Assembly: GCF_000012805.1 (NCBI RefSeq)
Contig: NC_007484.1
Location: forward strand, 1,320,001 to 1,352,000
DNA length: 32,000 nucleotides
Direction: 5' to 3'
DNA from: Nitrosococcus oceani ATCC 19707
Lineage (GTDB): Bacteria > Pseudomonadota > Gammaproteobacteria > Nitrosococcales > Nitrosococcaceae
Positions 12,519 through 27,282 of the stretch are shown one piece after another. The notes under the pieces are model-generated. The model was not told where the DNA came from. It made no database searches and worked only from the letters and a program-made list of their open reading frames with translations. Every line of letters starts with the position of its first letter. The first letter of the stretch is position 1. Both the position numbers and the translations under genes were made by a program.

Positions 12519-12552
12519 CCAGTACGTACCTCCTTTCTACACAGGAGAAAAC

Positions 12553-13407
12553 ATGAATGCTCCGGCCAGGATGGTGGCTGCCGGTAAACTTTTATTGTTG
12601 GGAGTACTCGCTTTATTGGCGCTTGCCCCCTCCGAGGCAGGGGTATTTCGCTGGATAGACTCAGCAGGCCACACCCACTATAGCGATCGCCCCCAGCCGG
12701 GCGCCCAGGAATTAAAGCTTAATAAACTTGCGGCGCCCTATTACTATGTTCAGCGGGTATATGATGGAGATACCCTCCTGCTCAAGGGGGATATCCGGGT
12801 CAGGTTATTAGGGATCGATACACCAGAGATTGAGGGCCGTTACCGGCTGGAGCAAGCAGGGGGCAGCTCGGCCCGGGATTGGTTGCGTCAACGTATTGAG
12901 GGTCAGAAGGTACGGCTTGAATTCGACCAAGAGCGGCATGATCATTATCAACGCTTGTTAGCCCACGTCTTTACTGTAGGGGGGGAACACCTTAACCTTC
13001 TCTTGGTAGAGGAAGGTTTGGCTGTAGTCAGTATTTTTCCTCCTAATTTCAAGTATGGTACTCAATTGGCACGGGCCCAGGATCGCGCCGAAGCGGACCG
13101 ACGGGGGCTTTGGAGCATGCCAGATTATGTGCCCCAGCCGATTCTAGCGATCCCCCGGGAGGGATACCAGCGAGGTTGGCGGCGTTATCAAGGAACCCCG
13201 GTGGCGATCCGTTCAAGCCGCAAGTATGCACGCTTGGTTTTTAGTAAGCAGGTGGAGGTGCGTATTCCCCAAGCGCAATTAGATCTTTTCGGGAAGCTTG
13301 AGCGCTACCTGGAAAAACAACTGGAGGTTCGAGGATGGGTTTCCCGCCGCAAAGAAAATTATTCTATCCTGGTGCGTCATCCAAGCGGACTCAAGCTGCT
13401 TTTTTAA
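12553..13407 (+). CDS. Secreted thermonuclease (SNase) family protein with an N-terminal DUF4124-like motif and a C-terminal extension
   Basis: SD AGGAGA lies upstream. Signal peptide ..LLALAPSEA|GV. FRWIDSAGHTHYSDRP resembles DUF4124. The SNase core is VYDGDTLLL..RVRLLGIDTPE.. and ..LLVEEGLA. About 110 aa of extra C-terminal sequence is of unknown fold. Confidence 0.8.
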   Translation: MNAPARMVAAGKLLLLGVLALLALAPSEAGVFRWIDSAGHTHYSDRPQPGAQELKLNKLAAPYYYVQRVYDGDTLLLKGDIRVRLLGIDTPEIEGRYRLEQAGGSSARDWLRQRIEGQKVRLEFDQERHDHYQRLLAHVFTVGGEHLNLLLVEEGLAVVSIFPPNFKYGTQLARAQDRAEADRRGLWSMPDYVPQPILAIPREGYQRGWRRYQGTPVAIRSSRKYARLVFSKQVEVRIPQAQLDLFGKLERYLEKQLEVRGWVSRRKENYSILVRHPSGLKLLF

Positions 13408-13700
13408 ACCGTGGATATTTCGCTCAGCCTGCAAACCTATTCTGCCGTGATTTTGCCTACCTTAAACCACACACTTAATCCATCCTCGCGCTCGCAGCAA
13501 AATTTCATTCGTATTCTCACTTGAATAAATTTTTAGTCTTTTGCCGTATTAAATGATGTGAAATCCCGCATTTTAAATTACCTACCAGGACAGGTTTTTT
13601 ACAACCCTTTGTTATTTCTATAAAAATTAATCTGGCATGGATTGTGAAAGGCTTTATAGCAGCCAATGGTGGGAAATAGGCTAAAGGAGGCACATTAGTA

Positions 13701-13916
13701 ATGAGGAAACAAACTCGTTTTCGCTGTGCGGCACAAAGGGGATGGTATTTTGTCACGGGGGAAGGTGAGGTGGGATTTTTTGATACACGGCGAGAAGCAG
13801 AACGGGTGTATCTGCGCTATGCATCTGAAAAAGCCATGACCTATAAGAGAGAGCAAAAACCAGAGTGCAAAGAAACGAAACCCATTACCAACTCTATTAA
13901 ATTACAGGCTATATAG
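13701..13916 (+). CDS. Small hypothetical protein (71 aa)
   Basis: Strong SD AAAGGAGG (13683-13690) about 10 nt before the ATG. Its own rho-independent terminator lies downstream. The motif RGWYFVTGEGEVGFFDTRREAERVYLRY resembles a small conserved gammaproteobacterial family, which I recall only vaguely. Confidence 0.5.
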   Translation: MRKQTRFRCAAQRGWYFVTGEGEVGFFDTRREAERVYLRYASEKAMTYKREQKPECKETKPITNSIKLQAI

Positions 13917-13986
13917 CAAAATTTTACTCTTTGATTGACCCTCCTCTCCCTTAATTTGTTAGGGATAACAATTTTAATTTATGACT

Positions 13987-14016
13987 GCGGCACAAGGAAG
14001 TGCCGTTTATTTTTTT
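13987..14016 (+). terminator. Rho-independent terminator of the small ORF
   Basis: Stem CGGCAC (13988-13993), loop aaggaa, stem GTGCCG (14000-14005), followed by TTTATTTTTTT. Confidence 0.6.
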
Positions 14017-14077
14017 ACGGGAATACTCAATTTGATTGGCGCGCAGGTAGCTTTAATTACAGAAATGCTAAAATCAA

Positions 14078-14122
14078 AAAGTCATAAAAAGAGGCCATGG
14101 GCATCTCCTGCCTCTGGCCTCT
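14078..14122 (-). terminator. Rho-independent terminator of the FKBP gene
   Basis: On the - strand: AGAGGCCA-ga-GGCA-ggaga-TGCC-ca-TGGCCTCT, followed by TTTTATGACTTT. It starts about 10 nt after the stop codon at 14133. It is convergent with the + strand terminator at 13987-14016. Confidence 0.7.
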
Positions 14123-14132
14123 TGCTGGAACA

Positions 14133-14810
14133 TTATTTAATTTCGAGCAGTTCAATATCAAAAATGAGCGTTTCATTGGGACCGATGAGACGGCCAGCGC
14201 CCCGCTCGCCATAGGCAAGGTCGGAAGGGATGAAGACTTTCCACTTAGAACCCACGGGCATTAACTGCAGCGCCTGTTGCCAACCTTCAATAACGCCATT
14301 GACCTTAAAGGTAACCGGTTCCCCTCGTTCATAGGAACTGTCGAATACCGTGCCATCCACCAGGGTGCCCCGGTAGTTGACTACGACGGTATCCTCGGCA
14401 GCGGGTTTTTCGCCTTCGCCTTGCTCAAGAATGCGATATTGCAGCCCGTTGGGAAGCTCGACCACTCCTTCCTTTTCTTTGTTGGTTTTTAGAAAATCTT
14501 TTCCTGTAGCTTTATTTTTCTCTCCACTTTCGGCTCTCTTTTGCTGCTCTTGTTGTTGTATGGCGTTCATTGCCGCCTTGGCTTGTTCCGGGGAAAGGCG
14601 CGAGGGGGCTTGTTGCAACGCATCTTCAAGGGCAAGCATAAATGCCTGCTTATCCAGTTCTATTCGTTGCTGCTGCATATTTTGGCCAAATTGATACCCG
14701 ATAAGGTAACTCAGTTTCTGGGCATCTGTTTCGAGCTCCTCCGCAGTGGTGGTTCCTCCAAGGAGGGCTAGGGTGAAGCTAGCAATTAGAAACATGGCTC
14801 CTTTAGGCAT
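14133..14810 (-). CDS. Periplasmic FKBP-type peptidyl-prolyl cis-trans isomerase (Mip/FkpA-like)
   Basis: 225 aa. Signal peptide MPKGAMFLIASFTLALLGGTTTA. N-terminal dimerisation helix region (KLSYLIGYQFGQNM). FKBP core GLQYRILEQGEGEKP..VVVNYRGTLVDGTVFDSS..VIEGWQQALQLMPVGSKW..IPSDLAYGERG. SD AAGGA lies 8 nt upstream. Confidence 0.9.
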   Translation of the reverse strand: MPKGAMFLIASFTLALLGGTTTAEELETDAQKLSYLIGYQFGQNMQQQRIELDKQAFMLALEDALQQAPSRLSPEQAKAAMNAIQQQEQQKRAESGEKNKATGKDFLKTNKEKEGVVELPNGLQYRILEQGEGEKPAAEDTVVVNYRGTLVDGTVFDSSYERGEPVTFKVNGVIEGWQQALQLMPVGSKWKVFIPSDLAYGERGAGRLIGPNETLIFDIELLEIK

Positions 14811-15162
14811 ATGTGTTTTCCTTAAATTTTAATGGGGATTGGTAAGATGGCCCTATAACTACATTTTAAAGGACCAGGATAGCCTTCGCCTGAAGGCAAA
14901 AAACTTATCATGATCCCATAAGGCTAAATTATAGTTCAAGATGGCGACGTTACTATCTCATGATAATAGACTTTGGTGATGCTCCCTTTCCACCCCAACG
15001 CCAGAAGTGGTGGCTACGATCCGTCCTTTTGCCATCTATGCCTCATTCTGGAGCCGCTGCGCAACTACTTCATATCATCTCTAGCGGGATGGTGAGAGAA
15101 GCCGGCGAAGGCAGTTTTCATTCTTATAAACAATAGCTAGAAAAATCAATTTTTTATTTATA

Positions 15163-15213
15163 AAAATACGGCAAATGCCGTATTTTAGGATAAGAGTTAT
15201 GGCATTTACCGTA
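15163..15213. promoter_or_regulatory. Pair of related palindromic sites (candidate operator or upstream activator sites)
   Basis: Site 1: AAAATACGGCA-aa-TGCCGTATTTT, perfect 11-bp arms (15163-15186). Site 2 (15199-15213), read on the bottom strand, is TACGGTAAATGCCAT, a 13/15 match to the site 1 core TACGGCAAATGCCGT. The centres are about 31-32 bp apart, roughly three helical turns. The sites lie in the AT-rich leader between the divergent FKBP gene and the YcnI-like gene. Confidence 0.35.
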
Positions 15214-15274
15214 ATTATCCTTATCTCCTGTGAGTCATTTTTATAAGCGATTGTATTTAAATTAAAAATTTTTG

Positions 15275-15289
15275 TGGAATAGTTTTTGC
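15275..15289 (+). promoter_or_regulatory. Candidate sigma54 (-24/-12) promoter element
   Basis: TGGAATAGTTTTTGC has the GG-N10-GC spacing and the TTGC -12 box of the consensus TGGCAC-N5-TTGC. The -24 box is degenerate (TGGAAT). It lies about 60-110 bp downstream of the palindromes and about 195 nt upstream of the GTG at 15485. Confidence 0.25.
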
Positions 15290-15484
15290 CTTACTTTAAT
15301 TAAGCGTGACCAAGGATAGCACCAGTTATGCGCTATTTAAATTTTATTTCCTCTTATTTCTTTATAGGAAAGGTAAATTAAGCTATCGTCATTCCCATGA
15401 ACGAAGAGATGCCTATAAGTGTCTAATTTTTTAGAAAATATAGATATTATTTATAGCGTCGAATATGACATAAGGAGATTATTT

Positions 15485-16219
15485 GTGACCCAAAAAACGC
15501 CTCTTTTTTCCCTGCTGTTTGCTTTATGGGGCGCGAGTTCCCTAGTGCTAGCCCATACCGTCATTACGGATCAGGCGACCGAAGGAACCAGCCTGTATAC
15601 GGGTTTTAATATTACCCATGGCTGTGGCTTTGAGGACAAACCTTCTCTTCCGGTCATTGCCCAGTCGGTAGTTTTTCCCAATGGGCCTAATGCTATTGTC
15701 ACCCGTCTGGATACCGAGGAAGCCATTGATTTAGGAGATGTACTCGTTGGCGGCGCCCACGCGGCTACCTTGATTAACCCGGCCATCATTCAAAACCGCG
15801 ATGTTTTTGATATAAATGAATCTATATCGGATGAAACGGGTGTGGTGAGGGGTGTTCATTATACCGAGGGTGGATTGCCCCCTGAGCTCGATGCCGTGCT
15901 GCCTTTCCGTGTTTCGGGGGTCACCTTTGTGGAAGAGTCCTGCGCCACCAAGGTAAGAGCGCGTATTGGGATAGCTAACTGGTGCCATCACCGGCCCGGT
16001 GCTCGTCGGGCTGACGTGTGGATAGGGCGGCTGACTCCGGTGTTTAATGACGAGCGAGTGGTTTCTATCGGCTTTTGGCCTGTTCTGACCTTTAATAGGG
16101 ACCTCGCTAGCAACCCCTTGCCAGCAGACTGTGGCGAAGGTTATGAGGTAGCCGTGGAACCTTCGGATGAGAGTATTGACCAATATTTACCGGTGCCCGA
16201 CTTTATTCCTGGCGTCTAG
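15485..16219 (+). CDS. Secreted YcnI/DUF1775-like protein with predicted N-terminal His (candidate copper-binding protein)
   Basis: GTG at 15485 is preceded by SD AAGGAG (15472-15477), so I prefer it to the ORF-track start at 15419. The signal peptide ..SLVLA|HTVITDQATEGTSLYTGFNITHGCG places His at mature position 1. An HGC motif follows about 21 residues later, as I recall for proteobacterial DUF1775 proteins. Four Cys in total. Confidence 0.6.
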   Translation: MTQKTPLFSLLFALWGASSLVLAHTVITDQATEGTSLYTGFNITHGCGFEDKPSLPVIAQSVVFPNGPNAIVTRLDTEEAIDLGDVLVGGAHAATLINPAIIQNRDVFDINESISDETGVVRGVHYTEGGLPPELDAVLPFRVSGVTFVEESCATKVRARIGIANWCHHRPGARRADVWIGRLTPVFNDERVVSIGFWPVLTFNRDLASNPLPADCGEGYEVAVEPSDESIDQYLPVPDFIPGV

Positions 16220-16253
16220 GCGAGGAAACGGTTTGTGATAAAATGCAAGCTAG

Positions 16254-16279
16254 CACGAGGCGCTGTTAAGCGCCTCGTG
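16254..16279 (+). promoter_or_regulatory. Perfect 10-bp GC-rich intercistronic stem-loop (no U tract)
   Basis: CACGAGGCGC-tgttaa-GCGCCTCGTG, located between the YcnI-like gene stop (16219) and the next start (16320). It is followed by AGCAACTTC, so it is not a canonical intrinsic terminator. Confidence 0.4.
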
Positions 16280-16319
16280 AGCAACTTCAGATGAGCTTGT
16301 CGGACAATCTGGAAACACC

Positions 16320-17207
16320 ATGAGGATGGCGGTGATTTTCCGTGGATTTCTTCTTTTAGCAGCGCTCCTTTCTGGCCATGCATGGGCCTATGGGGAAGAG
16401 TCTTTTTCTGGCTCTGACCGCAAAAAAATTGAAGAGAATCCCGCGAATAATGGCGCTCTCCATCTGGAGGTAAAGCAAGCGCCGCTGGCGCAAATTTTTA
16501 AGATCATTGAAGATCAATCTGGCGTTCAGCTCCATATTTCTTCTCTCTCTCAAAGAAGGGTAACAGCCACTTGCGCGGGCACCGCCCTAGAAGTGTTAAA
16601 ATGCATCCTGGGCAAAGAAGCTAATCTTGTTTATCGGTACGAAGATAAACCTTCTGACAAGAATTCAAAGCCTTTGCTTAGGGAAGTATGGGTGCTCAAT
16701 TCGGCTTCAGGCGAACCGCGCTCGTTGAGGCATAACCCTGATCAAGCTGTCTGCGAAGCCACGGAAAATTTTCCGGATGGACAACATGGACAACAGCCCC
16801 TAGTGGGAGAGGAACAACAGGCGTTTTTCCATTTGGAGCCGGAGGAGATGGAAAGGCTTATGGACCTTTCCCAGTCATCTGATCCAAAGTGGCGGAAAGA
16901 AGCCTTGTCCCGCCTTGCCTTGGTAGCAGAGGACGAGGACGATGGCGGTGTCAGAAAAGTTTTAACGGAGGCATTGCAAGACCCGAGTCCAGCTGTTAGG
17001 GCGCAGGCCATTTTCGGGCTAACCCGGCGGGATGATCCAGAGAGGGAATCGGTGCTACGAGAAGCCTTGCATGACAGCGAGGTGGAGGTGCGATTGATGG
17101 CGGTGAGCAATGCTGGAGAAGATAGGGCTTTACTTGAGATGGCGCTTCATGATGAGGACAGGGTCGTGCGCGATTTAGCTCGCATGAAGCTCGGGAAAAT
17201 AGAATAG
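16320..17207 (+). CDS. Exported protein with an STN-like N-domain and C-terminal HEAT (PBS-lyase type) repeats
   Basis: Signal peptide ..LLSGHAWA|YG. LHLEVKQAPLAQIFKIIEDQSGVQLHIS..ALEVLKCIL resembles the secretin/TonB short N-terminal (STN) domain. Repeats DPSPAVRAQAIFGL.., HDSEVEVRLMAV.., HDEDRVVRDLA are HEAT-like. Confidence 0.7.
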   Translation: MRMAVIFRGFLLLAALLSGHAWAYGEESFSGSDRKKIEENPANNGALHLEVKQAPLAQIFKIIEDQSGVQLHISSLSQRRVTATCAGTALEVLKCILGKEANLVYRYEDKPSDKNSKPLLREVWVLNSASGEPRSLRHNPDQAVCEATENFPDGQHGQQPLVGEEQQAFFHLEPEEMERLMDLSQSSDPKWRKEALSRLALVAEDEDDGGVRKVLTEALQDPSPAVRAQAIFGLTRRDDPERESVLREALHDSEVEVRLMAVSNAGEDRALLEMALHDEDRVVRDLARMKLGKIE

Positions 17208-17226
17208 CACGAGGAGAGGAAAGTCT

Positions 17227-17694
17227 ATGAAAATTGCAGCCTTAAAAAATCAATGGATTATGGTATTGATGATCGCTGGGTTGGGACTCAGCGTTAAAGC
17301 GACGGCCCATGATCAAATCGGCACCTTGGGTGTTGAAGGCAATGCTACCGATTATTATCAGATTATCTGCTCTACGGATGCGGGCGGGGTATCTGATTTT
17401 CTTGAGGTCCAAATATATGATGCCACCGTGGAGCAGGGTGGTGGTAAAATGAGCGCGGTAATACTAAGAGAACCGGTTGCCAGTACGGCCTCTGATCCCG
17501 TTAGGGCGGATGAGTTTTTTAACCACGATAAAAATCCTGGCCCCCCGGCTTTTGTTGGAGGAGGCGATGGAGTTTATAAGGTTATGGTACATAAACTCAA
17601 AAATGGTCCCAAAAATTATCTTCTGTCGTATCATTGCAAAAGCAGCGTTGGTCTTCATACGGGCACGTCCATTCTCCTTTTGCAAGATCAGTAA
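17227..17694 (+). CDS. Small secreted protein of unknown family; predicted mature N-terminus is His
   Basis: SD GGAGAGGAAAG lies upstream. Signal peptide ..GLGLSVKATA|HDQIGTLG. The mature protein is about 128 aa with two Cys (IICSTD, YHCKSS). I recognise no family. Confidence 0.65.
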   Translation: MKIAALKNQWIMVLMIAGLGLSVKATAHDQIGTLGVEGNATDYYQIICSTDAGGVSDFLEVQIYDATVEQGGGKMSAVILREPVASTASDPVRADEFFNHDKNPGPPAFVGGGDGVYKVMVHKLKNGPKNYLLSYHCKSSVGLHTGTSILLLQDQ

Positions 17695-17826
17695 TCGCGC
17701 CCGTTTTATTTTTTCGATAGTCTCCCTAAAAGTCTCCCAGGGTTTCTTCCGAGGAAAGTCCTGGGGGGCATCATGGGTATTTAATTCTGGTAGGATAACG
17801 CCCGCTTATTTAAAGTACACAAGGCC

Positions 17827-18345
17827 ATGAATAAACCGAGATTAGTGTTGTTTTATTTACTATTGGTAGCTATTCCCGCCGTACCAACGGCTATGGCTGC
17901 CGAGATTGGCCAACAGGCGCCTAACTGCTTATTGAAGCCCTTTGAGAAAGAAGATCAGGTGTTTCTTCAGCAATGGCAAGGAAAGGTGGTTTATGTGGAT
18001 TTTTGGGCTTCTTGGTGCCCGCCTTGCCTTAAATCTTTTCCCTTTTTAAATGATCTGCATCAGCGTTTTAGCGATCAAGGGCTACATATTGTGGGCATCA
18101 ATGTGGACGAGAAGTTAAGTGACGCCCAAGACTTTTTAGCGAGAGTGCCCGCTCACTTTGATGTTGTGGTTGATCCAGATCAGCAGTGTGCCCGGTCATT
18201 TGATATTCAAGCAATGCCTTCTTCTTTCTTGATTGACCAAAAGGGCGTGATTCGCCATACCCACTTAGGATTTCGCTCGGGGGATACGCAAGAGCTAGAG
18301 GCGTGGACGCAAAAACTTTTACAAGAAAAAACGGCTAATCCTTAA
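17827..18345 (+). CDS. Periplasmic TlpA/ResA-like thiol:disulfide oxidoreductase (thioredoxin fold)
   Basis: Signal or anchor sequence MNKPRLVLFYLLLVAIPAVPTAMA. Redoxin motif VVYVDFWASWCPPCLKSFPFL (CxxC). Typical redoxin-type (AhpC/TSA-like) thioredoxin-fold layout. Confidence 0.88.
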   Translation: MNKPRLVLFYLLLVAIPAVPTAMAAEIGQQAPNCLLKPFEKEDQVFLQQWQGKVVYVDFWASWCPPCLKSFPFLNDLHQRFSDQGLHIVGINVDEKLSDAQDFLARVPAHFDVVVDPDQQCARSFDIQAMPSSFLIDQKGVIRHTHLGFRSGDTQELEAWTQKLLQEKTANP

Positions 18346-18468
18346 TTTTACGCGTTGTTTACCGTTTAGTTTCCCCTCCCTTTTTTAGCATATGATTGCT
18401 TAATCAATACGCTTTGCGAAGCGCTACAACGCGCTTCGGCGTGTGTTAGATTTAAGGAGGATAGAGAT

Positions 18469-18726
18469 ATGATAAAAGATCGCCAACCTATAATAAGAAG
18501 ACGAAGAAAAACAATAAACACCTTGTTATTGCTACTATTCTTTGTGCTGCTAAACCTAGCAGGTTGCGCGCCGGTAGCGCCATGGGAACGGGGTAACCTG
18601 GCTAAACCCCAGATGGTGCCGGACCCCTATCCCATGCAGAGTGGCTTGCGTTCCCATAGTTACCGGGGCCGAGAAGCAGCTATCGGCGGCGATTCTGCGG
18701 AAGGGGGAGGATGTGGCTGCTATTAA
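18469..18726 (+). CDS. DUF4266 family lipoprotein
   Basis: SD AAGGAGG lies 8 nt upstream. Lipobox LNLAG|C. The conserved PWERGNLAKPQM segment and the C-terminal GGGCGCY tail are as I recall for DUF4266. The 3' end overlaps the following OMP gene. Confidence 0.85.
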   Translation: MIKDRQPIIRRRRKTINTLLLLLFFVLLNLAGCAPVAPWERGNLAKPQMVPDPYPMQSGLRSHSYRGREAAIGGDSAEGGGCGCY

Positions 18727-21262
18727 GCCAAAGCCTAACGCATCTTCTCCCAAGTGCCGGGCCAGCTCTTCATTATTGGCATTAACTTCTGCCGCGCTGG
18801 CCCTGCCCGGCTTGATGCCCTTACCGTCCCACGCCGCCTTCGAGGGGGGGGAATTCGATTTCCAATATGGCCGTTATCAAGAAGGTGGCGGCACTAAGAG
18901 TCAATTCCGAGATAAGGATAATGACATTCAGGTGGATAGTCTGCAGGCTTCTGGAGAAATCGACCTTTCTGATCGTTTGACTTTCCGCGCTAATTTTATT
19001 CAGGACACCTGGGTGGGGGCGACCCCCATTACCACGGCTCCCGCAGCAGCTATCAGATTTAACCCCAATGCCCAAACCGGGGCCTCAGCTTTTACTGATC
19101 TCAAAGGGGGTATTGTGGATTATGACACCCGTACCGGGGAAGGGCAGGCAACTATTCCGAATACCTTTGACACGGTAACCACCAATGAAACGGTGCATGT
19201 AATGGCTGAAGCCTCACCGGAAACCCGCAAGCAGGGAGATTTCCGGATGGGCTATGAATGGGATGAAGCGGCGCTGAATCTGGGGGGCGGTATTTCCTTG
19301 GAGGATGATTATGATTCCCGCTATGTTAGCCTAGGAGGCCGCTGGGATTTCAACCAGAAACTCACCACCCTGACAGGAGGCGTGAGCTATACGGATAGCA
19401 CTATCGATGTCCGCCGTTTCCGCTTCAGGGCCACTTCGGTTCCGGTTGATGCGGAAGGTGGGATAAACCCGGATTTTCCCGACTGGTCGGTGCGGCTCCA
19501 TGATGGGCGGACGGATATCGGAGCGAGTCTGGGCCTGACTCAAGTGCTGGATAAAAACTCGACCTTCCGAGCTAGTTTTGGTTATAACCACAATTCAGGT
19601 TTTCTCTCCAACCCGTATAAGGAAGTCACTTTTTTAACCCCCCTGGATACCCCAGGGAAAGCATGGCTATTCACCCGTTACGACAAACGCCCTGAAGAGC
19701 GGAATCAGTTCACCTGGAGCGCGGGCTATACTCGTTATCTTGCGAGGCTGGATGCTGGTTTGCATTTCAATTACAATTTTTTTCATGATGACTGGGGGAT
19801 CAACGCCCATACCTTTGACGCTTCCTGGGGGCAGCCTGTGGGAGGAGGGTGGATCATTACCCCCCGGGTCAGATATTACAGTCAAGGTGCCGCAGACTTC
19901 TATAGTCCCTTCTTTATTGCCAGCCAGGAGCCCCTTTCATTAGCGGAGATTTTACCTAATCAGAGCCAACTGCCTACCCCGGAGCATTTCTCCAGTGATC
20001 ATAGACTATCTGCTTTTGGGGCCCTGAGCGGTGGGGTGACAGTGAGCAAACAGTTTGCCAAAGGGGTCACTTTGGAGGCAGGATTTGAATATTATACCCA
20101 CGCTGGTTCTCTGAAGCTGGGAGGAGGAGGGACCGGTGATTTTGCCGATTTCAATTATTTTCTGGCTAACGCACTGCTGAAGGTGGATTTATCCGCTCTC
20201 ACTTATTCTGGGGGGGGGCATGATCATGCCGGTGGACATAACGGGCACAGCGATTTTGCCCCTGCCGGGGTAATGTTTAGCCATATGCTGGGGACAGCCG
20301 GCGAATTCATGGTGGGATACCGCTATCAGTATAGCCGCGAAGGCGGCGATATGCTCCATGGCACCCAGGCCATTGATGATCTTACTATTGTCAATAACGC
20401 CTGCCGCGATCGACCCTGTCAGCTAACCTCGGCGGTCATGAATATGCATATGCATATGCTTAATCTTATGTATGCGCCCACCGATTGGCTGAATCTGATG
20501 CTAATGCCCATGTTTATGGATATGAATATGGATTTGCGGAAGCTTGAAGGGGCGCCGCCTATTGATCCCGAGGCCGTGGGCGGACACTTCCATGCGGCGG
20601 ATAGCGGAGGACACGAGACCGGCGGTGTGGGCGATACCCAGCTATTCGCGCTGGTCAAATTGTTTGCGTCGCCTCAACATCATCTCCATTTGGGTTTAGG
20701 CGTCAGCGCGCCGACAGGGGATGTGGGTATTGAGGTTGAAGGTCAAGAGGTTAATGAGAGCAGCCCGGATTTTGGCAAACCCTTATTCATTCACTATGGG
20801 ATGCAGTTGGGAAGCGGTACCTGGGATTTCTTGCCTAACCTGACTTATACGGGTTCGATGGATCGCTGGTCTTGGGGTGGCCAACTGAGTGGTACCGTTC
20901 GCCTGGAAAGCGAAAACTCTTCCGGTTTTGCCTTTGGTGATATTTTTCAGGCCACTGCTTGGGGAGGCTATAGCCTATTCAAATGGCTGTCCGCCTCGGT
21001 TCGGGGCATTTATACTACCCAGGGAACGATTAGGAACCAATTCAACGGGCCGGACCCCCAGTCGGCGCCGGTGGACTTTCCAGAGAACTATGGTGGGCAT
21101 TTCTGGGATGTGGGTTTTGGCCTCAATGCTTCTACCTTAGGTGGCGGTCTGAAAGGCAATCGGCTAAGTATCGAATGGGTGCAGCCGGTCAGGAACGATG
21201 TCAATGGCTTTCAGCTGGAGCGGGAAGGGTCGCTTTTTGTCACTTGGGGTTTAGGATTTTAA
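18713..21262 (+). CDS. Outer-membrane protein: DUF3570 domain fused to a His/Met-rich MetA-pathway-like (annotated transporter) beta-barrel
   Basis: Likely GTG start at 18713 (the ORF track extends to 18641). Signal peptide ..LMPLPSHA|AFEGG. The N-terminal half has DUF3570-like features (..SSDHRLSAFGALSGG..). A linker GGGHDHAGGHNGH begins at about nt 20219. The C-terminal half has FAPAGVM.SHM, NMHMHMLNLMYAPTDWLNLMLMPMFMDMNM, GVGDTQ, APTGD, MQLGSGTWD, and ends ..TWGLGF, a terminal aromatic typical of an OMP beta-signal. Confidence 0.8.
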   Translation: MAAIKPKPNASSPKCRASSSLLALTSAALALPGLMPLPSHAAFEGGEFDFQYGRYQEGGGTKSQFRDKDNDIQVDSLQASGEIDLSDRLTFRANFIQDTWVGATPITTAPAAAIRFNPNAQTGASAFTDLKGGIVDYDTRTGEGQATIPNTFDTVTTNETVHVMAEASPETRKQGDFRMGYEWDEAALNLGGGISLEDDYDSRYVSLGGRWDFNQKLTTLTGGVSYTDSTIDVRRFRFRATSVPVDAEGGINPDFPDWSVRLHDGRTDIGASLGLTQVLDKNSTFRASFGYNHNSGFLSNPYKEVTFLTPLDTPGKAWLFTRYDKRPEERNQFTWSAGYTRYLARLDAGLHFNYNFFHDDWGINAHTFDASWGQPVGGGWIITPRVRYYSQGAADFYSPFFIASQEPLSLAEILPNQSQLPTPEHFSSDHRLSAFGALSGGVTVSKQFAKGVTLEAGFEYYTHAGSLKLGGGGTGDFADFNYFLANALLKVDLSALTYSGGGHDHAGGHNGHSDFAPAGVMFSHMLGTAGEFMVGYRYQYSREGGDMLHGTQAIDDLTIVNNACRDRPCQLTSAVMNMHMHMLNLMYAPTDWLNLMLMPMFMDMNMDLRKLEGAPPIDPEAVGGHFHAADSGGHETGGVGDTQLFALVKLFASPQHHLHLGLGVSAPTGDVGIEVEGQEVNESSPDFGKPLFIHYGMQLGSGTWDFLPNLTYTGSMDRWSWGGQLSGTVRLESENSSGFAFGDIFQATAWGGYSLFKWLSASVRGIYTTQGTIRNQFNGPDPQSAPVDFPENYGGHFWDVGFGLNASTLGGGLKGNRLSIEWVQPVRNDVNGFQLEREGSLFVTWGLGF

Positions 21263-21339: not shown

Positions 21340-22308
21340 ATGAAGCTTTACCGGGAAGCCTTCAAGGCGATGGGTACGCCCTGTGAAATTCAGCTCTATG
21401 CCAAGACTAAGGTTCAAGCTCAACGGGCCGCGGGACTTATTATCGCCGATGTGCGCCGGTTGGAAGCTCGCTATTCCCGCTACCGCACTGATAGTTTTCT
21501 CTCCGATATCAACCGGGTGGCCATGGCGGGTGGGCGTATTTCGGTAGACAAAGAAACAGAAGGATTGCTCAATTATGCAGCTACCTGTTATGGGCAAAGT
21601 AAAGGATTATTTGATATTACTTCCGGTATTTTACGGCGCGCTTGGGATTTTAAATCAGGCGAGCTGCCGAGCAGGGTGCAAGTACAGGAACTGCTGGACA
21701 AAATTGGCTGGGAAAAACTGCGCTGGGCGCCGCCGGTATTAGAATTTCCCATAGCTGGAATGGAGATTGACTTTGGAGGTATCGTCAAGGAATATGCCGC
21801 CGACCGGGCGGCTTCGCTGAGCTTACAGGCAGGAGTTCGGCGAGGCCTAGTAAACTTAGGCGGTGATATCAAAGTGATTGGTCCTCGCCCGGACGGTGAG
21901 CCTTGGCGGATTGGTATCCGCCATCCTGGACATAAAGAAGCCGCGATGGGAATGCTGCTGCTACATAAAGGCGCGATTGCTAGTAGTGGTGACTATGAGC
22001 GCTGCATTGTATTAGATGGCGTTCGTTACGGCCATGTCCTCAATCCTCAGACGGGTTGGCCGGTACGGCACTTGGCATCGGTGACCGTAATCAGTGATTT
22101 ATGTGTGGTAGCAGGAAGCGCTTCTACTATTGCCATGCTAAAAGAGGCTAATGGTTCAGCCTGGTTGCAGAATTTGGGATTACCTCATTTCTGGGTGAAC
22201 ATGGAAGGTGAAACCGGTGGTTCCCTAGAGGAAGGCTCCATTGAAGCTGTTGCTATGGTTCAAAACAGCGAGCGCCAGGCGGCAATCACGGTACTCAACG
22301 AATATTAA
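21340..22308 (+). CDS. apbE: ApbE-family FAD:protein FMN transferase (no signal peptide)
   Basis: 322 aa. Begins MKLYREAFKAMGTPCEIQLY (the ApbE xMGT motif sits at the very N-terminus). Later motifs GGIVKEYAADRA, NLGGDI, ASSGDYER. An in-frame TAA at 21328-21330 precludes any upstream extension. Confidence 0.88.
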   Translation: MKLYREAFKAMGTPCEIQLYAKTKVQAQRAAGLIIADVRRLEARYSRYRTDSFLSDINRVAMAGGRISVDKETEGLLNYAATCYGQSKGLFDITSGILRRAWDFKSGELPSRVQVQELLDKIGWEKLRWAPPVLEFPIAGMEIDFGGIVKEYAADRAASLSLQAGVRRGLVNLGGDIKVIGPRPDGEPWRIGIRHPGHKEAAMGMLLLHKGAIASSGDYERCIVLDGVRYGHVLNPQTGWPVRHLASVTVISDLCVVAGSASTIAMLKEANGSAWLQNLGLPHFWVNMEGETGGSLEEGSIEAVAMVQNSERQAAITVLNEY

Positions 22309-22310
22309 CA

Positions 22311-22325
22311 AAGGCGCCACGCCTT
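22311..22325 (+). terminator. Weak hairpin after apbE (possible partial terminator)
   Basis: AAGGCG-cca-CGCCTT lies 3 nt after the stop. The T tract is interrupted (GCTGTGATTTTC). The 3-nt loop is tight. Confidence 0.25.
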
Positions 22326-22402
22326 GCTGTGATTTTCATGAAAACCGAATGCCGCTGCTTGTCCACTCAAATCTATCCTGTACATGCAAGGATAAAGAAA
22401 AT

Positions 22403-23956
22403 ATGAATGACCTCTCCCTAAATTTCCCGGGACGAGCGGGACTCTACTTTATCGTCTTTTTGACTGGCGCCGCAGTCATGATCATAGAAATTTTGGGAAC
22501 TCGGATGATTGCCCCTTTCTATGGGGCGAGCCTTTACGTTTGGTCATCCCTGATCTCGGTCACTATGATAGCGCTGGCCTTGGGTTATTTTATCGGGGGC
22601 CGCTGGGCTGATCGGGCCGAACGGACCGGCCTGTCATTGATCATTGCACTCGCAGCCTTACTCACTCTTCTTATTCCCTGGTTAACTCGTCCAGTGTTGC
22701 TGGCGACCGATCCGTTGGGCCTGCGGGCAGGGGCTTTGGTGAGTGCGCTGGTGCTGTTTTCGCCAAGCTTGACCTTTCTGGGAATGGTGGGGCCTTTCGC
22801 TGTTAAGTTATCCACTGCAAATCTGGCGGGGGTTGGCGCCAGCGCCGGTTCGATTTATGGGATAAGCACCCTTGGCAGTGTCGTGGGAACGTTACTCCTG
22901 GGATTCTATTTATTTCCTATTGTAGGTTCCCGCGAGATTTTTATTGTGCTTGGCCTTGTCCTGTTCCTATTGGCCATAGCCGTAGCCTTTTATGAGAGAA
23001 AACGCCTGAGGTTTACCTCGGCCCTACTGCCCATTGACTTCTTGGCAGCGATAGGAATTGGGCTATTACCACAAATTGCCGGTGCAAATCGCACGGACTC
23101 CAATAAGGAGTCTTTTCAAGTCCAATTCGAGCGGGAAAGCTTATATGGTTGGGTACGGGTTATTGATCAACCGGCGCGGGATCTCCGCCTGCTCACCGCT
23201 GATGCTTCTACCATTGGAGCGGCCAGCATTACCCATGGTCAAAACCGGCTTGCCTACCAAAATATCGTACCGCTCATTCCGGCTTTAGCACCTCCTATGA
23301 AGCGCGCTTTGCTGATTGGCCAGGGTGCCGGCCATATGGCTATGGCTTTGGAAGATCGCTATGGGATTGTCATGGATACGCTGGAGATAGACCCGGCCGT
23401 TGCGGAGGCGGCAATCCGTTATTTTGGCTTTAGTCCCACTGGTAAGGCCATAATTGGAGATGCCCGTTATGAAATTCGGCGTTTAAAAGGTCCTTATGAT
23501 TTAATTATCCATGATTGTTTTACCGGGGGTGCGGAGCCTGTCCATTTACTGACTATTGAAACTTTGACACGGCTACGCTCCCTGCTTTCCGAGCAGGGCA
23601 TACTCGCCCTTAATTTCGTATCTTTCTCGGAGAACGGGAAAAATACTGCATTGGCCTCTATCGCCAAGACCCTGGCGCACGCTTTTCCCCATCAAATGGT
23701 TTTTGCTTCCGAGCCCGGCAAGGATTTTAACGATTTCATTTTCCTTGCCGCTAATCGCCCTATTGATTTGGATGTCAATACACTCACGCTTGAGAAAATT
23801 TCTTGGTTAAAACAACGCCTTATGATAGTGGATAAAACCCAAGGAATCCTGTTAACGGATAATTTTAATCCACTTGAGCATTTGCAGGTACGTAAAGCAA
23901 AACACTATAGAAATATTTTAGTCAATTGGTTAGGCACGGATATTTTAGTGCGGTGA
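22403..23956 (+). CDS. Membrane-fused spermidine-synthase-like protein (polytopic N-domain plus class I SAM-fold domain)
   Basis: I prefer the ATG at 22403 (MNDLSLNFPGRAGLYFIVFLTGAAVMIIEILGTRMIAPFYGAS..), since the ORF-track extension to 22241 overlaps apbE. About 7-8 hydrophobic helices. The C-terminal domain has LLIGQGAGHMA, LEIDPAV and DLIIHDCF. The stop overlaps the wzm start (GTGA). Confidence 0.8.
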   Translation: MNDLSLNFPGRAGLYFIVFLTGAAVMIIEILGTRMIAPFYGASLYVWSSLISVTMIALALGYFIGGRWADRAERTGLSLIIALAALLTLLIPWLTRPVLLATDPLGLRAGALVSALVLFSPSLTFLGMVGPFAVKLSTANLAGVGASAGSIYGISTLGSVVGTLLLGFYLFPIVGSREIFIVLGLVLFLLAIAVAFYERKRLRFTSALLPIDFLAAIGIGLLPQIAGANRTDSNKESFQVQFERESLYGWVRVIDQPARDLRLLTADASTIGAASITHGQNRLAYQNIVPLIPALAPPMKRALLIGQGAGHMAMALEDRYGIVMDTLEIDPAVAEAAIRYFGFSPTGKAIIGDARYEIRRLKGPYDLIIHDCFTGGAEPVHLLTIETLTRLRSLLSEQGILALNFVSFSENGKNTALASIAKTLAHAFPHQMVFASEPGKDFNDFIFLAANRPIDLDVNTLTLEKISWLKQRLMIVDKTQGILLTDNFNPLEHLQVRKAKHYRNILVNWLGTDILVR

Positions 23957-24780
23957 AGTCATCGTCTGGATTCTCCATTTCTCCCATCGCGGCACTCAAG
24001 GAATTCATCAAAACCCGTGAATTGATTGCCCAGCTTGTTTGGAGCGAAGTGGTAGGGCGTTACCGGGGTTCCTTTGCGGGATTCTTGTGGTCTTTTCTTA
24101 ATCCTTTATTCTCCCTGGCAATGTATACTTTTGTCTTTGGGGTGGTTTTTAAGGCACGCTGGGGATTGTCGGCAGAAAATACTTTTGATTTTTCCATGGT
24201 GTTATTTACGGGTTTAATTGTTCATGGGTTAGTGTCTGAAACTATCAATCGAGCGCCCTATTTAATTCTTAGTAATCCCAGTTATGTTAAGCAAGTTGTG
24301 TTTCCCCTGGAGGTATTGCCGGTCGTCGCTTTGGGGTCGAGTTTATTTCATGCCGCGATTAGTTTTTTATTGTTAATTGTTATTTGGAGCATCGCCCATG
24401 GGAGCATAGCATTAGCCGTTGCTTTTATTCCCTTGCTAATATTGCCCTTGAGTTTAATTACTGTTGGAGTGAGTTGGTTTATGGCAGCGGCTACTGTGTA
24501 TTTTCGGGATCTGGGTCAACTGGTGACTTTTATCAGCAGTGGGCTGCTCTTTTTCTCGCCAATTTTTTACCCTGTAAGCTCAGTTCCAGAATCTTTTCGG
24601 ATCTTTTTAGAACTTAATCCGCTTACTTATATCATTGAACAGGTACGTGCCACGCTTATTAGTGGAGAAATTCCAGAGCTAAAGGGTTATGTAGTCTATT
24701 TTTTAGTTTCTGCTATCGTTGCCTGGGCGGGTTATGCCTGGTTCCAGAAAACACGCGCCGGTTTTGCCGATGTAATATAA
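23953..24780 (+). CDS. wzm: ABC-2 type polysaccharide export permease (Wzm/TagG-like)
   Basis: GTG at 23953 overlaps the upstream TGA. N-terminal signature RELIAQLVWSEVVGRYRGSFAGFLWSFLNPL, followed by six hydrophobic helices. The start could instead be the TTG at 23926. Confidence 0.85.
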   Translation: MKSSSGFSISPIAALKEFIKTRELIAQLVWSEVVGRYRGSFAGFLWSFLNPLFSLAMYTFVFGVVFKARWGLSAENTFDFSMVLFTGLIVHGLVSETINRAPYLILSNPSYVKQVVFPLEVLPVVALGSSLFHAAISFLLLIVIWSIAHGSIALAVAFIPLLILPLSLITVGVSWFMAAATVYFRDLGQLVTFISSGLLFFSPIFYPVSSVPESFRIFLELNPLTYIIEQVRATLISGEIPELKGYVVYFLVSAIVAWAGYAWFQKTRAGFADVI

Positions 24781-26030
24781 TGTTAACTTCCATGGGAGAA
24801 ACCGATCCGGAAATTTTGATTAATGTGGATAATGTTAGCAAGTGCTATCATTTATACCACCGCCCTCAGGATCGACTGTGGCAGTCTTTTTTTCGAGGGC
24901 GTAAAAAATTTCACCGTGAATTTTGGGCATTACTCAATATTTCCTTGCAGGTCCGGCGGCATGAGGCTGTAGCTATCATCGGGCGCAATGGCGCGGGAAA
25001 AAGCACCTTGCTACAGATCATTGCCGGCACTTTAGCGCCTACCTCAGGAAAAATCGCTGTTCAAGGCAGAGTTGCGGCCTTGCTCCAATTGGGAAGCGGT
25101 TTTAACCCTGAATTCACGGGGCGGGAAAATGTGTTTCTAAACGGCGCTATCCTTGGGTTTAGCCGCGCTGAAATTAGCTGCCGCTTTGAAGCAATAACAG
25201 CCTTTGCGGAGATCGGTAATTTTATTGATCAACCGGTTAAAACCTATTCTTCCGGGATGATCATGCGGCTTGCTTTCGCTGTTTCTACTTGTCTTGAACC
25301 GGAAGTGCTGATCATCGATGAGGCTTTAGCGGTAGGGGACGCAGCATTCCAATTTAAATGCAGGGATCGGCTTCAGGGTCTGATTACTCAAGGAACTACA
25401 TTATTACTGGTTTCCCATGATATGAGCGCTGTTAAATCGTTTTGTCATCGTGCAGTCTATATTGAAGATGGCCAAAAAAAGGCGGAGGGTGAACCGGAAC
25501 ACATCTCTGAGCGTTATTTTATGGATGTGCGTGCCCGGCAGATGAGTCGCGTACAACAAGAAAAAAAAGGCAGGGATACCATCGTCTGTGAAAAGTCCCA
25601 TGGTTATGGCACTAGTGAAGGAGAAATTGAGTCCGCTGTTTTTGTAGCAACAAGAGGAAGTGCCGCTCTTTTTAATTATGGTGATACTATTGAATTAAAG
25701 GTTACCTGCCAGTTTGCGTCTCACATAGAGTTTCCATGCCTATCGGTAGTACTCCAGGCAACTAATCTAGTGGGTATAGGTGGGCGCTGGTTCCGTATTA
25801 ACCCGCTTTCTTCGGAATTCGATGCTGCTGCTATTACTTTAAAAATAAAGTTTCCCGCAAAATTTAATGATGGAAAATATTTTATTACCCTAAGATTGGA
25901 AGATCGTAAAGATCAGAAACAATATTTTATTTTACATAAAATTCCAGGCGCATTAACATTTGATATTTTGCCGCGTACTAATAACGATTTATTAGGGTTT
26001 AATGATATAAAACTTACCTGTGAGCAGTAA
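24780..26030 (+). CDS. wzt: Polysaccharide export ABC ATPase with a C-terminal substrate-binding domain (Wzt/TagH-like)
   Basis: The ATG overlaps the wzm stop by 1 nt. Walker A GRNGAGKSTL, signature YSSGMIMRLAFA, Walker B VLIIDEAL. About 150 extra C-terminal residues (from about nt 25572) are beta-rich, as in the Wzt_C jelly-roll domain. Confidence 0.9.
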   Translation: MLTSMGETDPEILINVDNVSKCYHLYHRPQDRLWQSFFRGRKKFHREFWALLNISLQVRRHEAVAIIGRNGAGKSTLLQIIAGTLAPTSGKIAVQGRVAALLQLGSGFNPEFTGRENVFLNGAILGFSRAEISCRFEAITAFAEIGNFIDQPVKTYSSGMIMRLAFAVSTCLEPEVLIIDEALAVGDAAFQFKCRDRLQGLITQGTTLLLVSHDMSAVKSFCHRAVYIEDGQKKAEGEPEHISERYFMDVRARQMSRVQQEKKGRDTIVCEKSHGYGTSEGEIESAVFVATRGSAALFNYGDTIELKVTCQFASHIEFPCLSVVLQATNLVGIGGRWFRINPLSSEFDAAAITLKIKFPAKFNDGKYFITLRLEDRKDQKQYFILHKIPGALTFDILPRTNNDLLGFNDIKLTCEQ

Positions 26031-26033
26031 GAA

Positions 26034-26663
26034 ATGATTATTTCTCACAAATATCAATTTATTTTTATAAAGAACGGAAAAACAGCAGGAACAAGTATTG
26101 AAGTATTCCTTTCCAAGTTTTGCGGTTCTTTTGATATCGTTACCCCCATTTATCCCGCGGTGGAATCCCATTTTCCTCGTAATTACGCGGGTTTTTATAA
26201 CCGCATGACGAGCGCGGAGATTCGGGAGAAAATAGGTAAGAAAACCTGGAAAAATTATTTTAAATTTTGTGTAGAGCGTAACCCTTGGGATAAAGCTATC
26301 TCCTATTATTATATGGCTAAATGCAGAACTGGTGGGAATCTCTCTCTTGACAAATTTCTCGATGGCTGTGAATTTCCCATCAATTTTCCCCGCTATACAG
26401 AACCAGGAAATAGTTCAAAAATTATTGTAGATAAAATTATTGACTTTAATAACCTTATTGAAGGCTTAGGAGAAGTTTTCGGAAGGTTAGGATTACCTTT
26501 TGATGGTTCGCTTGGGGTTTATGCTAAATCAGAATATCGGACTGATCGACGGCCTTATCAAGAAGTTTTGACGGCTTCCCAGGCACGTAAAATTCAAGAG
26601 ATCTTTGCGGTGGAGATTGATTTGCATGGTTATCATTTTCAGAAAGTAAAATTAATCGCATGA
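26034..26663 (+). CDS. Family-2 type sulfotransferase (paralog 1)
   Basis: 5'-PSB-like loop FIKNGKTAGTSIEVFL and 3'-PB-like motif VERNPWDKAISYYY. 209 aa. Separated from wzt by a 3-nt gap. Confidence 0.8.
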   Translation: MIISHKYQFIFIKNGKTAGTSIEVFLSKFCGSFDIVTPIYPAVESHFPRNYAGFYNRMTSAEIREKIGKKTWKNYFKFCVERNPWDKAISYYYMAKCRTGGNLSLDKFLDGCEFPINFPRYTEPGNSSKIIVDKIIDFNNLIEGLGEVFGRLGLPFDGSLGVYAKSEYRTDRRPYQEVLTASQARKIQEIFAVEIDLHGYHFQKVKLIA

Positions 26664-27280: not shown

Positions 27281-27282
27281 GA

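Follow-up and report, generated by a model that had tools for sequence, protein, structure and literature searches.

A conserved fusion of a DUF3570 domain to a predicted methionine-lined outer-membrane barrel in Nitrosococcus oceani, a candidate redox-coupled copper uptake protein

Analysis of a 32,000-nucleotide (nt) stretch of the Nitrosococcus oceani ATCC 19707 genome (contig NC_007484.1, positions 1,320,001 to 1,352,000; the whole stretch is called the window below, and positions are counted from its first letter) revealed a gene, Noc_1224, whose product joins a DUF3570 domain to a predicted second outer-membrane barrel carrying a ladder of methionines. The fusion is real and widely conserved, as is the operon around it. 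We consider it an even chance that Noc_1224 is a redox-coupled outer-membrane copper uptake device, a two-barrel protein in which a flavinylated DUF3570 barrel would work together with a Met-lined channel.

The open reading frame (ORF) listing of the window contains a single uninterrupted ORF for this protein, 18641..21262 on the forward strand, as a preliminary description of the same DNA had stated. The likely start is the GTG at 18713, directly 3' of a Shine-Dalgarno-like run, GGGGGAGGA; with the stop at 21262 it gives a product of 849 amino acids (aa). The gene then overlaps the stop of the upstream DUF4266 gene by 14 nt, and the N-termini of homologues in alignment A1 line up with this start. 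The protein is 100% identical to Noc_1224 of N. oceani ATCC 19707 (P0268), which in the database has 873 aa, starts from the GTG at 18641, and overlaps the DUF4266 gene by 86 nt. Since the homologues align from GTG 18713, the database version is probably 24 codons too long (18641-18712), and residues are numbered below for the 849-aa protein. The database names for the fusion protein are solely "DUF3570 domain-containing protein", "lipoprotein", or "hypothetical". The genes gmk, spoT, recG, and ubiA lie in the neighborhood, and the locus is therefore part of the ordinary chromosome. A promoter and terminator scan gave nothing above the shuffled expectation. The gene has the following features:

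18713..21262, forward strand: whole gene, DUF3570 domain fused to the Met-lined barrel, 849 aa and stop
18713..18838, forward strand: predicted Sec signal peptide, residues 1 to ~42, ending in LALPGLMPLPSHA and followed by A (read from the sequence; helix at residues 21-30 in the AlphaFold model)
18776..20161, forward strand: DUF3570 domain, residues 22-483, beta-rich (Pfam PF12094, E 3.6e-137)
19001..19024, forward strand: flavinylation motif 1, QDTWVGAT, residues 97-104, predicted target Thr104 (conservation; motif definition of PMC8238504)
19076..19087, forward strand: flavinylation motif 2, TGAS, residues 122-125, predicted target Ser125
20210..20248, forward strand: His-rich inter-barrel linker, GGGHDHAGGHNGH, residues 500-512, predicted to be periplasmic and disordered
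20249..21259, forward strand: C-terminal 12-stranded barrel, residues 513-849, divergent member of the COG4313/PF13557/FapF superfamily
20255..20305, forward strand: non-strand segment before strand 1, residues 515-531, family consensus HAPAGVMxDHMHKAGE
20438..20530, forward strand: Met ladder of strands 2 and 3, residues 576-606, MNMHMHMLNLMYAPTDWLNLMLMPMFMDMNM (M576, M578, M580, M582, M586, M596, M598, M604, and M606)
20579..20626, forward strand: His cluster, GGHFHAADSGGHETGG, residues 623-638, in predicted extracellular loop L2 (topology parse)
20630..20638, forward strand: GDT motif, residues 640-642, invariant D641, matching by motif the COG4313 loop residues Asp92 and Thr94
20711..20719, forward strand: PTG motif, residues 667-669, corresponding by motif to COG4313 Pro119-Thr120-Gly121
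21248..21259, forward strand: C-terminal GLGF with terminal Phe, invariant F849

The fused form was found in many independent assemblies. In a whole-protein search, the top 120 matches were full-length fusions of ~820-960 aa. Complete or near-complete genomes with the fusion include those of Nitrosococcus halophilus (81% identity), Ca. Nitrosoglobus terrae, two Ca. Nitrosacidococcus, Methylobacter sp. sgz302048, Ca. Methylocalor cossyra, and Methylomicrobium sp. wino1, and it also occurs in many metagenome-assembled genomes (MAGs) of Methylobacter, Methylovulum, and Methyloglobulus. Of the 150 top-ranking cluster representatives (50% identity) retrieved with the C-terminal half, ~66 are full-length fusions by table count. 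Gene arrangements were compared in 85 loci, 79 from a scan of one genome per GTDB species and six others, which were translated in six frames and searched with the window proteins; this sample comprises the ~80 loci most similar to the Nitrosococcus query and is biased towards its relatives. An uninterrupted fused ORF was observed in 59 of the 85 loci, five loci have 2-4 tandem fused copies, ~21 have a stand-alone barrel, and a few are cut by contig ends. The named fused loci belong to Methylococcales and Crenothrix (~30), Nitrosomonas (13), and the Nitrosococcus lineage, with a few from Spirochaetales, Myxococcota, and Burkholderiales. The preliminary description had called this architecture unusual, which holds against the ~420-aa DUF3570 proteins of the literature, whereas in Methylococcales, Nitrosomonas, and the Nitrosococcus lineage the fusion is common.

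Separate, intact DUF3570 and barrel genes standing side by side were found in none of the 85 loci, and no orthologue has a stop codon at the junction. The sole candidate for a split version is locus L002 (6297-9002), from a long-read MAG, where DUF3570 and the barrel appear as separate called genes. There the DUF3570 part lies in two frames, the barrel in a third segment, and the supposedly stand-alone barrel has no signal peptide. With two compensating frame changes, L002 is thus a frameshifted fusion and was rejected as a true split. Set against the independent full-length fusions, complete genomes included, and the 59 uninterrupted loci, this one case leaves practically no chance that Noc_1224 is an assembly or frameshift artefact joining two genes.

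Several methanotroph loci carry tandem arrays of two to four complete fusion genes, namely L021 (Crenothrix polyspora), L034, L050, L056, and L057; L056 (Methyloglobulus) has four copies at 11712-20049 plus fragments. In some of these arrays, DUF4266 genes are interspersed.

The second half of Noc_1224 is a divergent subfamily of the COG4313/PF13557 superfamily. This assignment was obtained via homologues, family profile, and fold. For the homologues, we used alignment A2, which contains 54 relatives, fused and stand-alone, down to 32% identity. PF13557 is matched by 32 of these 54 relatives (best E 2.4e-13) yet misses the Noc_1224 half itself, and the half is therefore described as a divergent subfamily and not as a curated-threshold member. 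The family profile matches FapF in the PDB (E 3.7e-4). A Foldseek search of the PDB with the full-length model retrieved, for the C-terminal domain, Pput2725 (4RL8, template modelling (TM) score 0.68) and FapF (TM 0.64-0.68), with probability 1.00. Relatives of the second half are numerous (1,757 among 1.84 billion cluster representatives; 533 in an indexed search), and many of them stand alone, have 310-400 aa and a signal peptide of their own, carry PF13557, and are in some cases named "transporter" at NCBI. Thus the view of the preliminary description that the second half belongs to the "MetA-pathway/transporter" barrels agrees with all three lines of evidence.

In the full-length AlphaFold2 model (mean predicted local distance difference test score (pLDDT) 79.9; predicted TM score 0.70), a beta-rich N-terminal domain and a second beta domain (residues 532-848) are separated by a disordered linker at residues 498-512, where pLDDT is below 50; residues 1-44 also have low pLDDT. 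The homologues share a linker consensus, HxxHxxHxxH. Twelve transmembrane strands were counted for residues 532-848 from the DSSP string of the model. We read the two modelled beta-rich blocks as two barrels, not one.

Eleven of the 31 residues 576-606 are Met. The Met background in the other 25 ORFs of the window is 1.9%, with a maximum of 4 Met per 31 aa, and the binomial probability of at least 11 Met in 31 residues is ~6e-12. Residues H524, M533, M580, M582, M586, M606, and M697 are unvarying in all 54 A2 sequences, and M576, M578, M596, and M598 are conserved in 94-98% of them; M604 is conserved in 67% of A2 and invariant in A1, where the C564/C569 pair is also nearly invariant. In strands 2-3, aliphatic or aromatic residues make up at least 93% at positions 583, 585, 587, 593, 595, 597, and 601, with Met at the intervening positions. 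Strand 1 has the same pattern, F532, V534, Y536, and Y538 alternating with M533, G535, R537, and M539. Because the Met residues alternate with aliphatic or aromatic, lipid-facing positions, we infer that they occupy the lumen face of three adjacent strands. In this ladder, M576 and M606 are outermost, and M586 and M596 are nearest to the periplasm.

In the segment before strand 1, H524 is invariant, and M521 and G530 are conserved in 83% and 96%. The N-terminal segment of COG4313 proteins occludes the lumen from the periplasmic side (PMC4493636), and by analogy the segment with His524 is likely inserted in the barrel lumen. Within the His cluster of loop L2, H625 and H634 are conserved in 54% and 69%. 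The COG4313 structure (Pput2725, 4RL8) is a 12-stranded barrel with conserved Asp92, Thr94, and Pro119-Thr120-Gly121 in extracellular loops (PMC4493636); GDT and PTG of Noc_1224, which vary little or not at all within the family, correspond to them by motif, not by direct alignment to Pput2725. In the family profile, GD and PTG of the second barrel align to GD and PTG of FapF. P667 and G669 are invariant in A1, as are P and T of PTG in A2. The terminal Phe is typical of an outer-membrane beta-signal. Stand-alone relatives have Met/His-rich N-terminal extensions, e.g. DHSQMDHFQMDHSQMGHSSMEHDH; a periplasmic location fits both these extensions and the His-rich linker. Chemically, a row of thioethers between His-rich mouths would be expected to suit Cu(I) or Ag(I), as in Ctr1, CusA/CusF, and PcoB/CopB.

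The sequence elements named in the preliminary description, namely the 11 Met in 31 residues at 20438-20530, the second His cluster, and the motifs FAPAGVM.SHM, GVGDTQL, APTGD, MQLGSGTWD, and terminal GLGF, were all recovered in the protein. Its nucleotide positions for the Met stretch are correct; its residue numbers, 600-630, follow the 873-aa ORF and become 576-606 here. The linker it placed at 20219-20248 is present but spans 20210-20248. It had also named three observations that would refute its reading, namely a second half without homology to any barrel family, absence of the fusion from independent assemblies, and orthologues consistently interrupted by a stop codon at the junction; none of the three holds.

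The assignment of the first half to DUF3570, also made in that description, was recovered by Pfam: the PF12094 match has 458 bits against a cut-off of 25 and covers model positions 2-426 of 427. Experiments have established that the cognate ApbE flavinylates DUF3570 at a pair of [S/T]GA[S/T] motifs; the usual neighbors of DUF3570 are ApbE, a protein resembling thioredoxin, and the small, secreted DUF4266 with its CXC terminus, and its function was left open (PMC8238504). In motif 1 of the fused proteins, Q97, D98, T99, W100, G102, A103, and T104 are unvarying across 44 fused homologues; the first residue of VGAT (101-104) is Val in Noc_1224 and Ser in 36 of the 44. At motif 2, 43 of the 44 have xGA[S/T], and the GA[S/T] core is kept at both sites in 43 of the 44. 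Because both motifs are kept and the full set of ApbE, DUF4266, and TlpA-like genes adjoins, the fused protein is very probably still a flavoprotein.

The modelled strands of the N-terminal domain lie between residues 47 and 492, and we count ~18 transmembrane strands in the DSSP string. Foldseek aligned this domain with generic large outer-membrane barrels only (TonB-dependent transporters, MtrB, FadL; TM 0.2-0.3), and no specific kinship to any of these was drawn from such generic alignments. When topology rules (periplasmic N-terminus, short periplasmic turns, long external loops) are applied to the DSSP string, the flavin mononucleotide (FMN) sites would map to the external end of strand 3 and to L2, a long loop of this domain (residues ~100-159). 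Giant variants of the fusion, with 1,062-2,800 aa (P0123, P0125, P0127, P0129, P0130, P0132, L059 7160-10996, and L068 4904-10942), contain inserts of 400-1,700 aa with no Pfam domain, Ser/Asn/Thr-rich in P0125, the one read. In most of them the insert directly follows flavinylation motif 1, in the motif-2 loop, and such large inserts suggest that this loop is surface-exposed; in P0132 the extra sequence precedes the entire DUF3570 domain.

The genomic context of the stand-alone relatives is linked to copper. CruR is a leader peptide that senses copper and, when the metal is present, stops transcription of the TonB-dependent copper-uptake operon behind it; it is characterized by a 45-residue spacing between CxxC and RAPP and a 162-nt intergenic region (PMC9426467). 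In 12 distinct stand-alone loci, a small same-strand ORF ending in R[AG]PP lies directly upstream of the barrel gene. Such ORFs are rare, 28 of 16,340 examined, and 15 of the 28 are directly upstream of a barrel gene (a duplicated locus counted). Nine of the 12 leaders have CxxC (CxxxC in two) located 44-45 aa before RAPP, the leader-barrel intergenic distances are 123-185 nt (L001, L004, L006), and two leaders were independently flagged as DUF2946. The leaders are thus of the CruR type, as judged by CxxC, the 45-aa spacing, RAPP, and the long intergenic region. Genes for Csp copper-storage proteins (PF03860) occur within a few kb in L001, L002, L010, and L053; in L002 the Csp gene is ~3 kb downstream of the frameshifted fusion. 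The fused orthologues come mainly from Methylococcales, Crenothrix, Nitrosomonas, Nitrosococcus, Nitrosoglobus, and Nitrosacidococcus, organisms dependent on copper monooxygenases. Accordingly, the "Cu(I)-type pore" of the preliminary description, drawn there from residue composition, gains independent backing from genomic context (CruR-type leaders, Csp genes, and the YcnI-like gene described below), with copper still a predicted substrate.

Relatives on plasmids of Ruegeria and Methylosinus are more distant (60-64% of the domain covered) and were not used in the argument. The latter, on plasmid pMSC49c of Methylosinus sp. C49 (L087, 5411-7627), is a 738-aa "outer membrane beta-barrel protein" whose C-terminal part has 35% identity over 64% of the Met-lined barrel domain. 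Its gene is directly upstream of feoB/feoC, a hint that related barrels may serve ferrous iron.

The operon of the fusion gene has the order 266-aa protein, HEAT-repeat protein, 155-aa protein, TlpA-like protein, DUF4266, fusion, ApbE, 571-aa membrane protein. Occurrence of the neighbors was counted over the 59 fused loci, many of which end early at contig ends:

15419..16219, forward strand: YcnI-like secreted 266-aa protein, true start probably ~15485 (25/59)
16320..17207, forward strand: secreted HEAT-repeat protein, Pfam HEAT_2 (24/59)
17227..17694, forward strand: secreted 155-aa protein, alignment A4 (40/59)
17827..18345, forward strand: secreted TlpA/ResA-like thioredoxin with WCPPC, Pfam Redoxin, E 1.6e-26 (46/59)
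18469..18726, forward strand: DUF4266 lipoprotein with lipobox LAGC and a C-terminal CXC motif, GGCGCY, PF14086, E 4e-19 (51/59)
21340..22308, forward strand: ApbE, flavin adenine dinucleotide:protein FMN transferase, PF02424, E 7.8e-72 (36/59)
22241..23956, forward strand: polytopic 571-aa membrane protein, PF01564 (spermidine-synthase-like) at E 0.04, below threshold (19/59)

Two secreted neighbors may be copper-binding proteins. For the 266-aa protein, Pfam gave no match and a profile search of PDB sequences found nothing; its AlphaFold model (pLDDT 91.9) has 3ESM as the sole Foldseek match with E below 1e-3. 3ESM, from Nocardia, is closely related to YcnI, and the structure of the Cu(II)-binding YcnI was solved with it by molecular replacement (PMC8424229). 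In the 266-aa protein, H4 (directly behind the signal peptide), W159, and four Cys are invariant and E13 nearly so; the His/Glu/Trp triad of YcnI thus has a counterpart in H4, E13, and W159. We regard it as probably a divergent mono-histidine-brace copper protein. The 155-aa protein, directly upstream of the TlpA-like gene and often in 2-3 tandem copies at fused loci, has conserved His28 (here, too, directly behind the signal peptide), H136, H144, and a Cys48-Cys137 pair. Neither Pfam nor a profile search of PDB sequences gave a match for it, and it may be another copper-binding protein. The gene at 22241-23956, which directly follows ApbE in many fused loci, has an annotated TTG start that may be too far upstream.

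Elsewhere in the window, G+C content falls to 0.37-0.42 at 26000-29000, compared with ~0.50-0.55 elsewhere. This stretch covers co-directional ORFs at 26034-31926, downstream of an ABC-2/ABC-ATPase pair (23926-26030). The pair may serve polysaccharide export, and the low-G+C region may have been acquired horizontally as a surface-polysaccharide cluster. At 1295-2215 and 3687-5108, upstream of housekeeping genes, the window encodes a DUF6384 protein (E 4.5e-129) and a PIN-PhoH fusion, respectively, both unrelated to the fusion gene.

The proposed function of Noc_1224 in copper uptake can be laid out as a series of steps: (i) ApbE, encoded next door, would attach FMN to Thr104 and Ser125 of the DUF3570 barrel, (ii) a thiol relay from the TlpA-like thioredoxin to the CXC lipoprotein DUF4266 would pass electrons to the flavins, (iii) the flavins would reduce Cu(II) to Cu(I) at the outer membrane, (iv) Cu(I) would travel along the Met thioether ladder of the attached channel into the periplasm, and (v) the YcnI-like 266-aa protein and its 155-aa neighbor, both with His at the mature N-terminus, would pick it up there. 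Each mouth of the channel would have a His-rich stretch, namely loop L2 on the outside and the linker on the periplasmic side. Through the fusion, reductase and Cu(I) channel would always be present at 1:1 stoichiometry and close to each other. The route would be TonB-independent and reductive, for organisms with the very high copper demand of ammonia monooxygenase (AMO) or particulate methane monooxygenase (pMMO). In its fullest form, which we put forward more tentatively and with the chances somewhat against it, Noc_1224 would be a flavin-dependent cupric reductase embedded in the outer membrane and fused to a Cu(I)-selective Met-ladder channel, powered by a periplasmic thiol relay and independent of TonB, a bacterial counterpart of the Fre/Ctr1 pathway of eukaryotes, and a main copper entry route for ammonia oxidisers and gammaproteobacterial methanotrophs without methanobactin.

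In the Fre/Ctr1 system, by which eukaryotes take up copper reductively, a flavin metalloreductase makes Cu(I), which is conducted by a Met-lined pore with metal-collecting His/Met motifs at its mouth. Met-relay Cu(I) transport is likewise carried out by the Met rings of Ctr1 and the Met pairs of CusA. The resemblance of Noc_1224 to Fre/Ctr1 is a functional analogy only: there is no homology, the membrane and the fold (beta-barrels) are different, and the electron donor would be a thiol relay instead of NADPH. PcoB/CopB is also a small barrel of the outer membrane, and its N-terminal extension is rich in Met/His and probably periplasmic; its motifs are located in this flexible region, however, and are not known to form a ladder on the barrel wall. 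Noc_1224 has no Pfam match to PcoB/CopB (PF05275), and PcoB is absent from the PDB profile matches (E up to 10) and from the top 50 Foldseek matches.

Compared with the described DUF3570 clusters, Noc_1224 has the same full-length domain, two GA[S/T] motifs, and ApbE, DUF4266, and TlpA-like neighbors, but the ~420-aa single-domain protein of those clusters (PMC8238504) is extended here by the 337-aa Met-lined C-terminal barrel. Those clusters occur with or without DsbD, for which there is no gene in the window; the paper describing them does not speak of copper, of PF13557, or of DUF3570 as an outer-membrane protein (PMC8238504). With the COG4313 proteins Pput2725, TcpY, and SphA and with FapF, the second barrel shares 12 strands, the segment before strand 1, GD(T) and PTG, and a mature length of ~300-340 aa. 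It differs from COG4313 by the invariant Met ladder, the invariant His in the N-terminal segment, the His-rich loops and extensions, the copper-related context in place of aromatic or sphingosine catabolism, and its fusion behind another barrel without a signal peptide of its own. In the CruR operons (Bordetella bp2923-bfrG-bp2921 and the OprC type; PMC9426467), the leader is followed by a TonB-dependent transporter, whose place is taken by the stand-alone barrels; the latter have 12 strands and neither plug nor TonB box, and the fused form in the window lacks the leader. The operon partners listed for CruR are TonB-dependent transporters, PepSY, ScoC, PCuAC, YcnI, CopC, MbnPH, and AhpC, and the text of that paper makes no mention of the present barrel family (PMC9426467). 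A TonB-dependent copper transporter of the OprC/NosA type was not found in Noc_1224, either as a Plug or TonB_dep_Rec match in Pfam or by Foldseek, where OprC and other TonB-dependent transporters gave TM 0.2-0.3. With no plug and no TonB box, any transport would be passive or redox-driven and not TonB-energised. A literature search gave no description of the fusion and no link of PF13557/COG4313 barrels to copper.

Met/His-rich motifs are typical not only of uptake systems but also of PcoB/CopB, CopA, and CusF, and Noc_1224 could instead participate in copper or silver detoxification, with the Met barrel as a PcoB/CopB-like exit or sequestration site for periplasmic Cu(I) and the flavin barrel either in another redox step or holding the metal in one oxidation state for export. 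The nearby Csp storage proteins fit buffering as well as supply, and relatives of CruR of the CutF type, with DUF2946, CxxxC, and a short intergenic region, switch on copper oxidase and detoxification genes (PMC9973294). The leaders upstream of the stand-alone relatives, however, are of the CruR type, which in Bordetella represses an uptake operon with copper (PMC9426467); CusCBA, the CopA ATPase, and a multicopper oxidase were not found beside the fused genes, PcoB appeared neither in the PDB sequence search nor among the top Foldseek matches, and occurrence in organisms with the copper demand of AMO or pMMO fits supply better. We therefore regard detoxification as improbable. Only a little less improbable is a substrate other than copper, i.e. 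a hydrophobic or sulfur-containing molecule passing a COG4313-type channel or another metal such as Fe(II), with the DUF3570 flavins in an unrelated extracytoplasmic redox task such as iron reduction. The distant Methylosinus relative upstream of feoB would suit iron, as would the VIT1 iron transporter found in 25 DUF3570 clusters (PMC8238504), and the characterized COG4313 proteins TcpY, SphA, and Pput2725 handle hydrophobic molecules (PMC4493636). Yet an invariant Met ladder with an invariant His is not expected of a channel for hydrophobic substrates or Fe(II), the CruR-type leaders, Csp genes, and YcnI-like gene point specifically to copper, and there are no catabolic or Fe-uptake genes among the conserved neighbors. 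Met-rich periplasmic proteins are also known targets of oxidation, and since a TlpA-like thioredoxin and a flavoprotein are encoded with a Met-rich protein, the Met residues could be redox buffers, forming a sacrificial antioxidant surface or a repaired protein kept reduced by the thioredoxin/flavin module. This is very improbable: no MsrA, MsrB, or MsrP domain is encoded in the operon, the stand-alone Met-lined barrels occur without a redox partner and with copper-sensing leaders, and invariant Met at defined positions along a single strand face suggest an ordered site, not bulk scavenging.

Several points nevertheless weigh against copper uptake by Noc_1224. The proposed function of the Met-lined subfamily, Noc_1224 included, was derived from sequence and predicted models; the position of Met in the lumen, the membrane side of FMN, and the contact between the barrels are deduced from periodicity and general topology rules. 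The C-terminal half by itself has no match in Pfam (PF13557, E up to 10), NCBIfam, or PDB sequences. The characterized COG4313 members are implicated in the uptake of hydrophobic molecules, not metals (PMC4493636), and iron was suggested for some DUF3570 clusters, including the VIT1 ones (PMC8238504). The R[AG]PP ORF scan found no CruR leader in the fused operons. Given that CutF activates detoxification, a copper leader demonstrates a link to copper but is no more than suggestive as to the direction of transport. Bias also affects the taxonomic enrichment, the loci having been picked as most similar to the Nitrosococcus query. Finally, extracellular flavin sites would require the protein to be flavinylated before it is inserted into the membrane.

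Both domain families are known; the fusion and a proposed copper role for this barrel family are newly described. The global nitrogen and methane cycles are driven by ammonia oxidisers and methanotrophs by means of the copper enzymes AMO and pMMO, and to our knowledge copper passage over the outer membrane is largely unknown for lineages without methanobactin. The fusion gene is a conserved and genetically testable candidate for copper entry in these organisms. It also suggests a first function for DUF3570, a flavinylated family of no known role, and would move a large subfamily of "MetA-pathway/transporter" barrels from the uptake of hydrophobic compounds to copper handling. If the redox coupling is true, Noc_1224 would be, as far as we know, the first flavin reductase in the bacterial outer membrane wired to a metal channel. 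The stand-alone, CruR-controlled Met-lined barrels would, if our reading of them is true, constitute a previously unrecognised class of passive outer-membrane copper channels.

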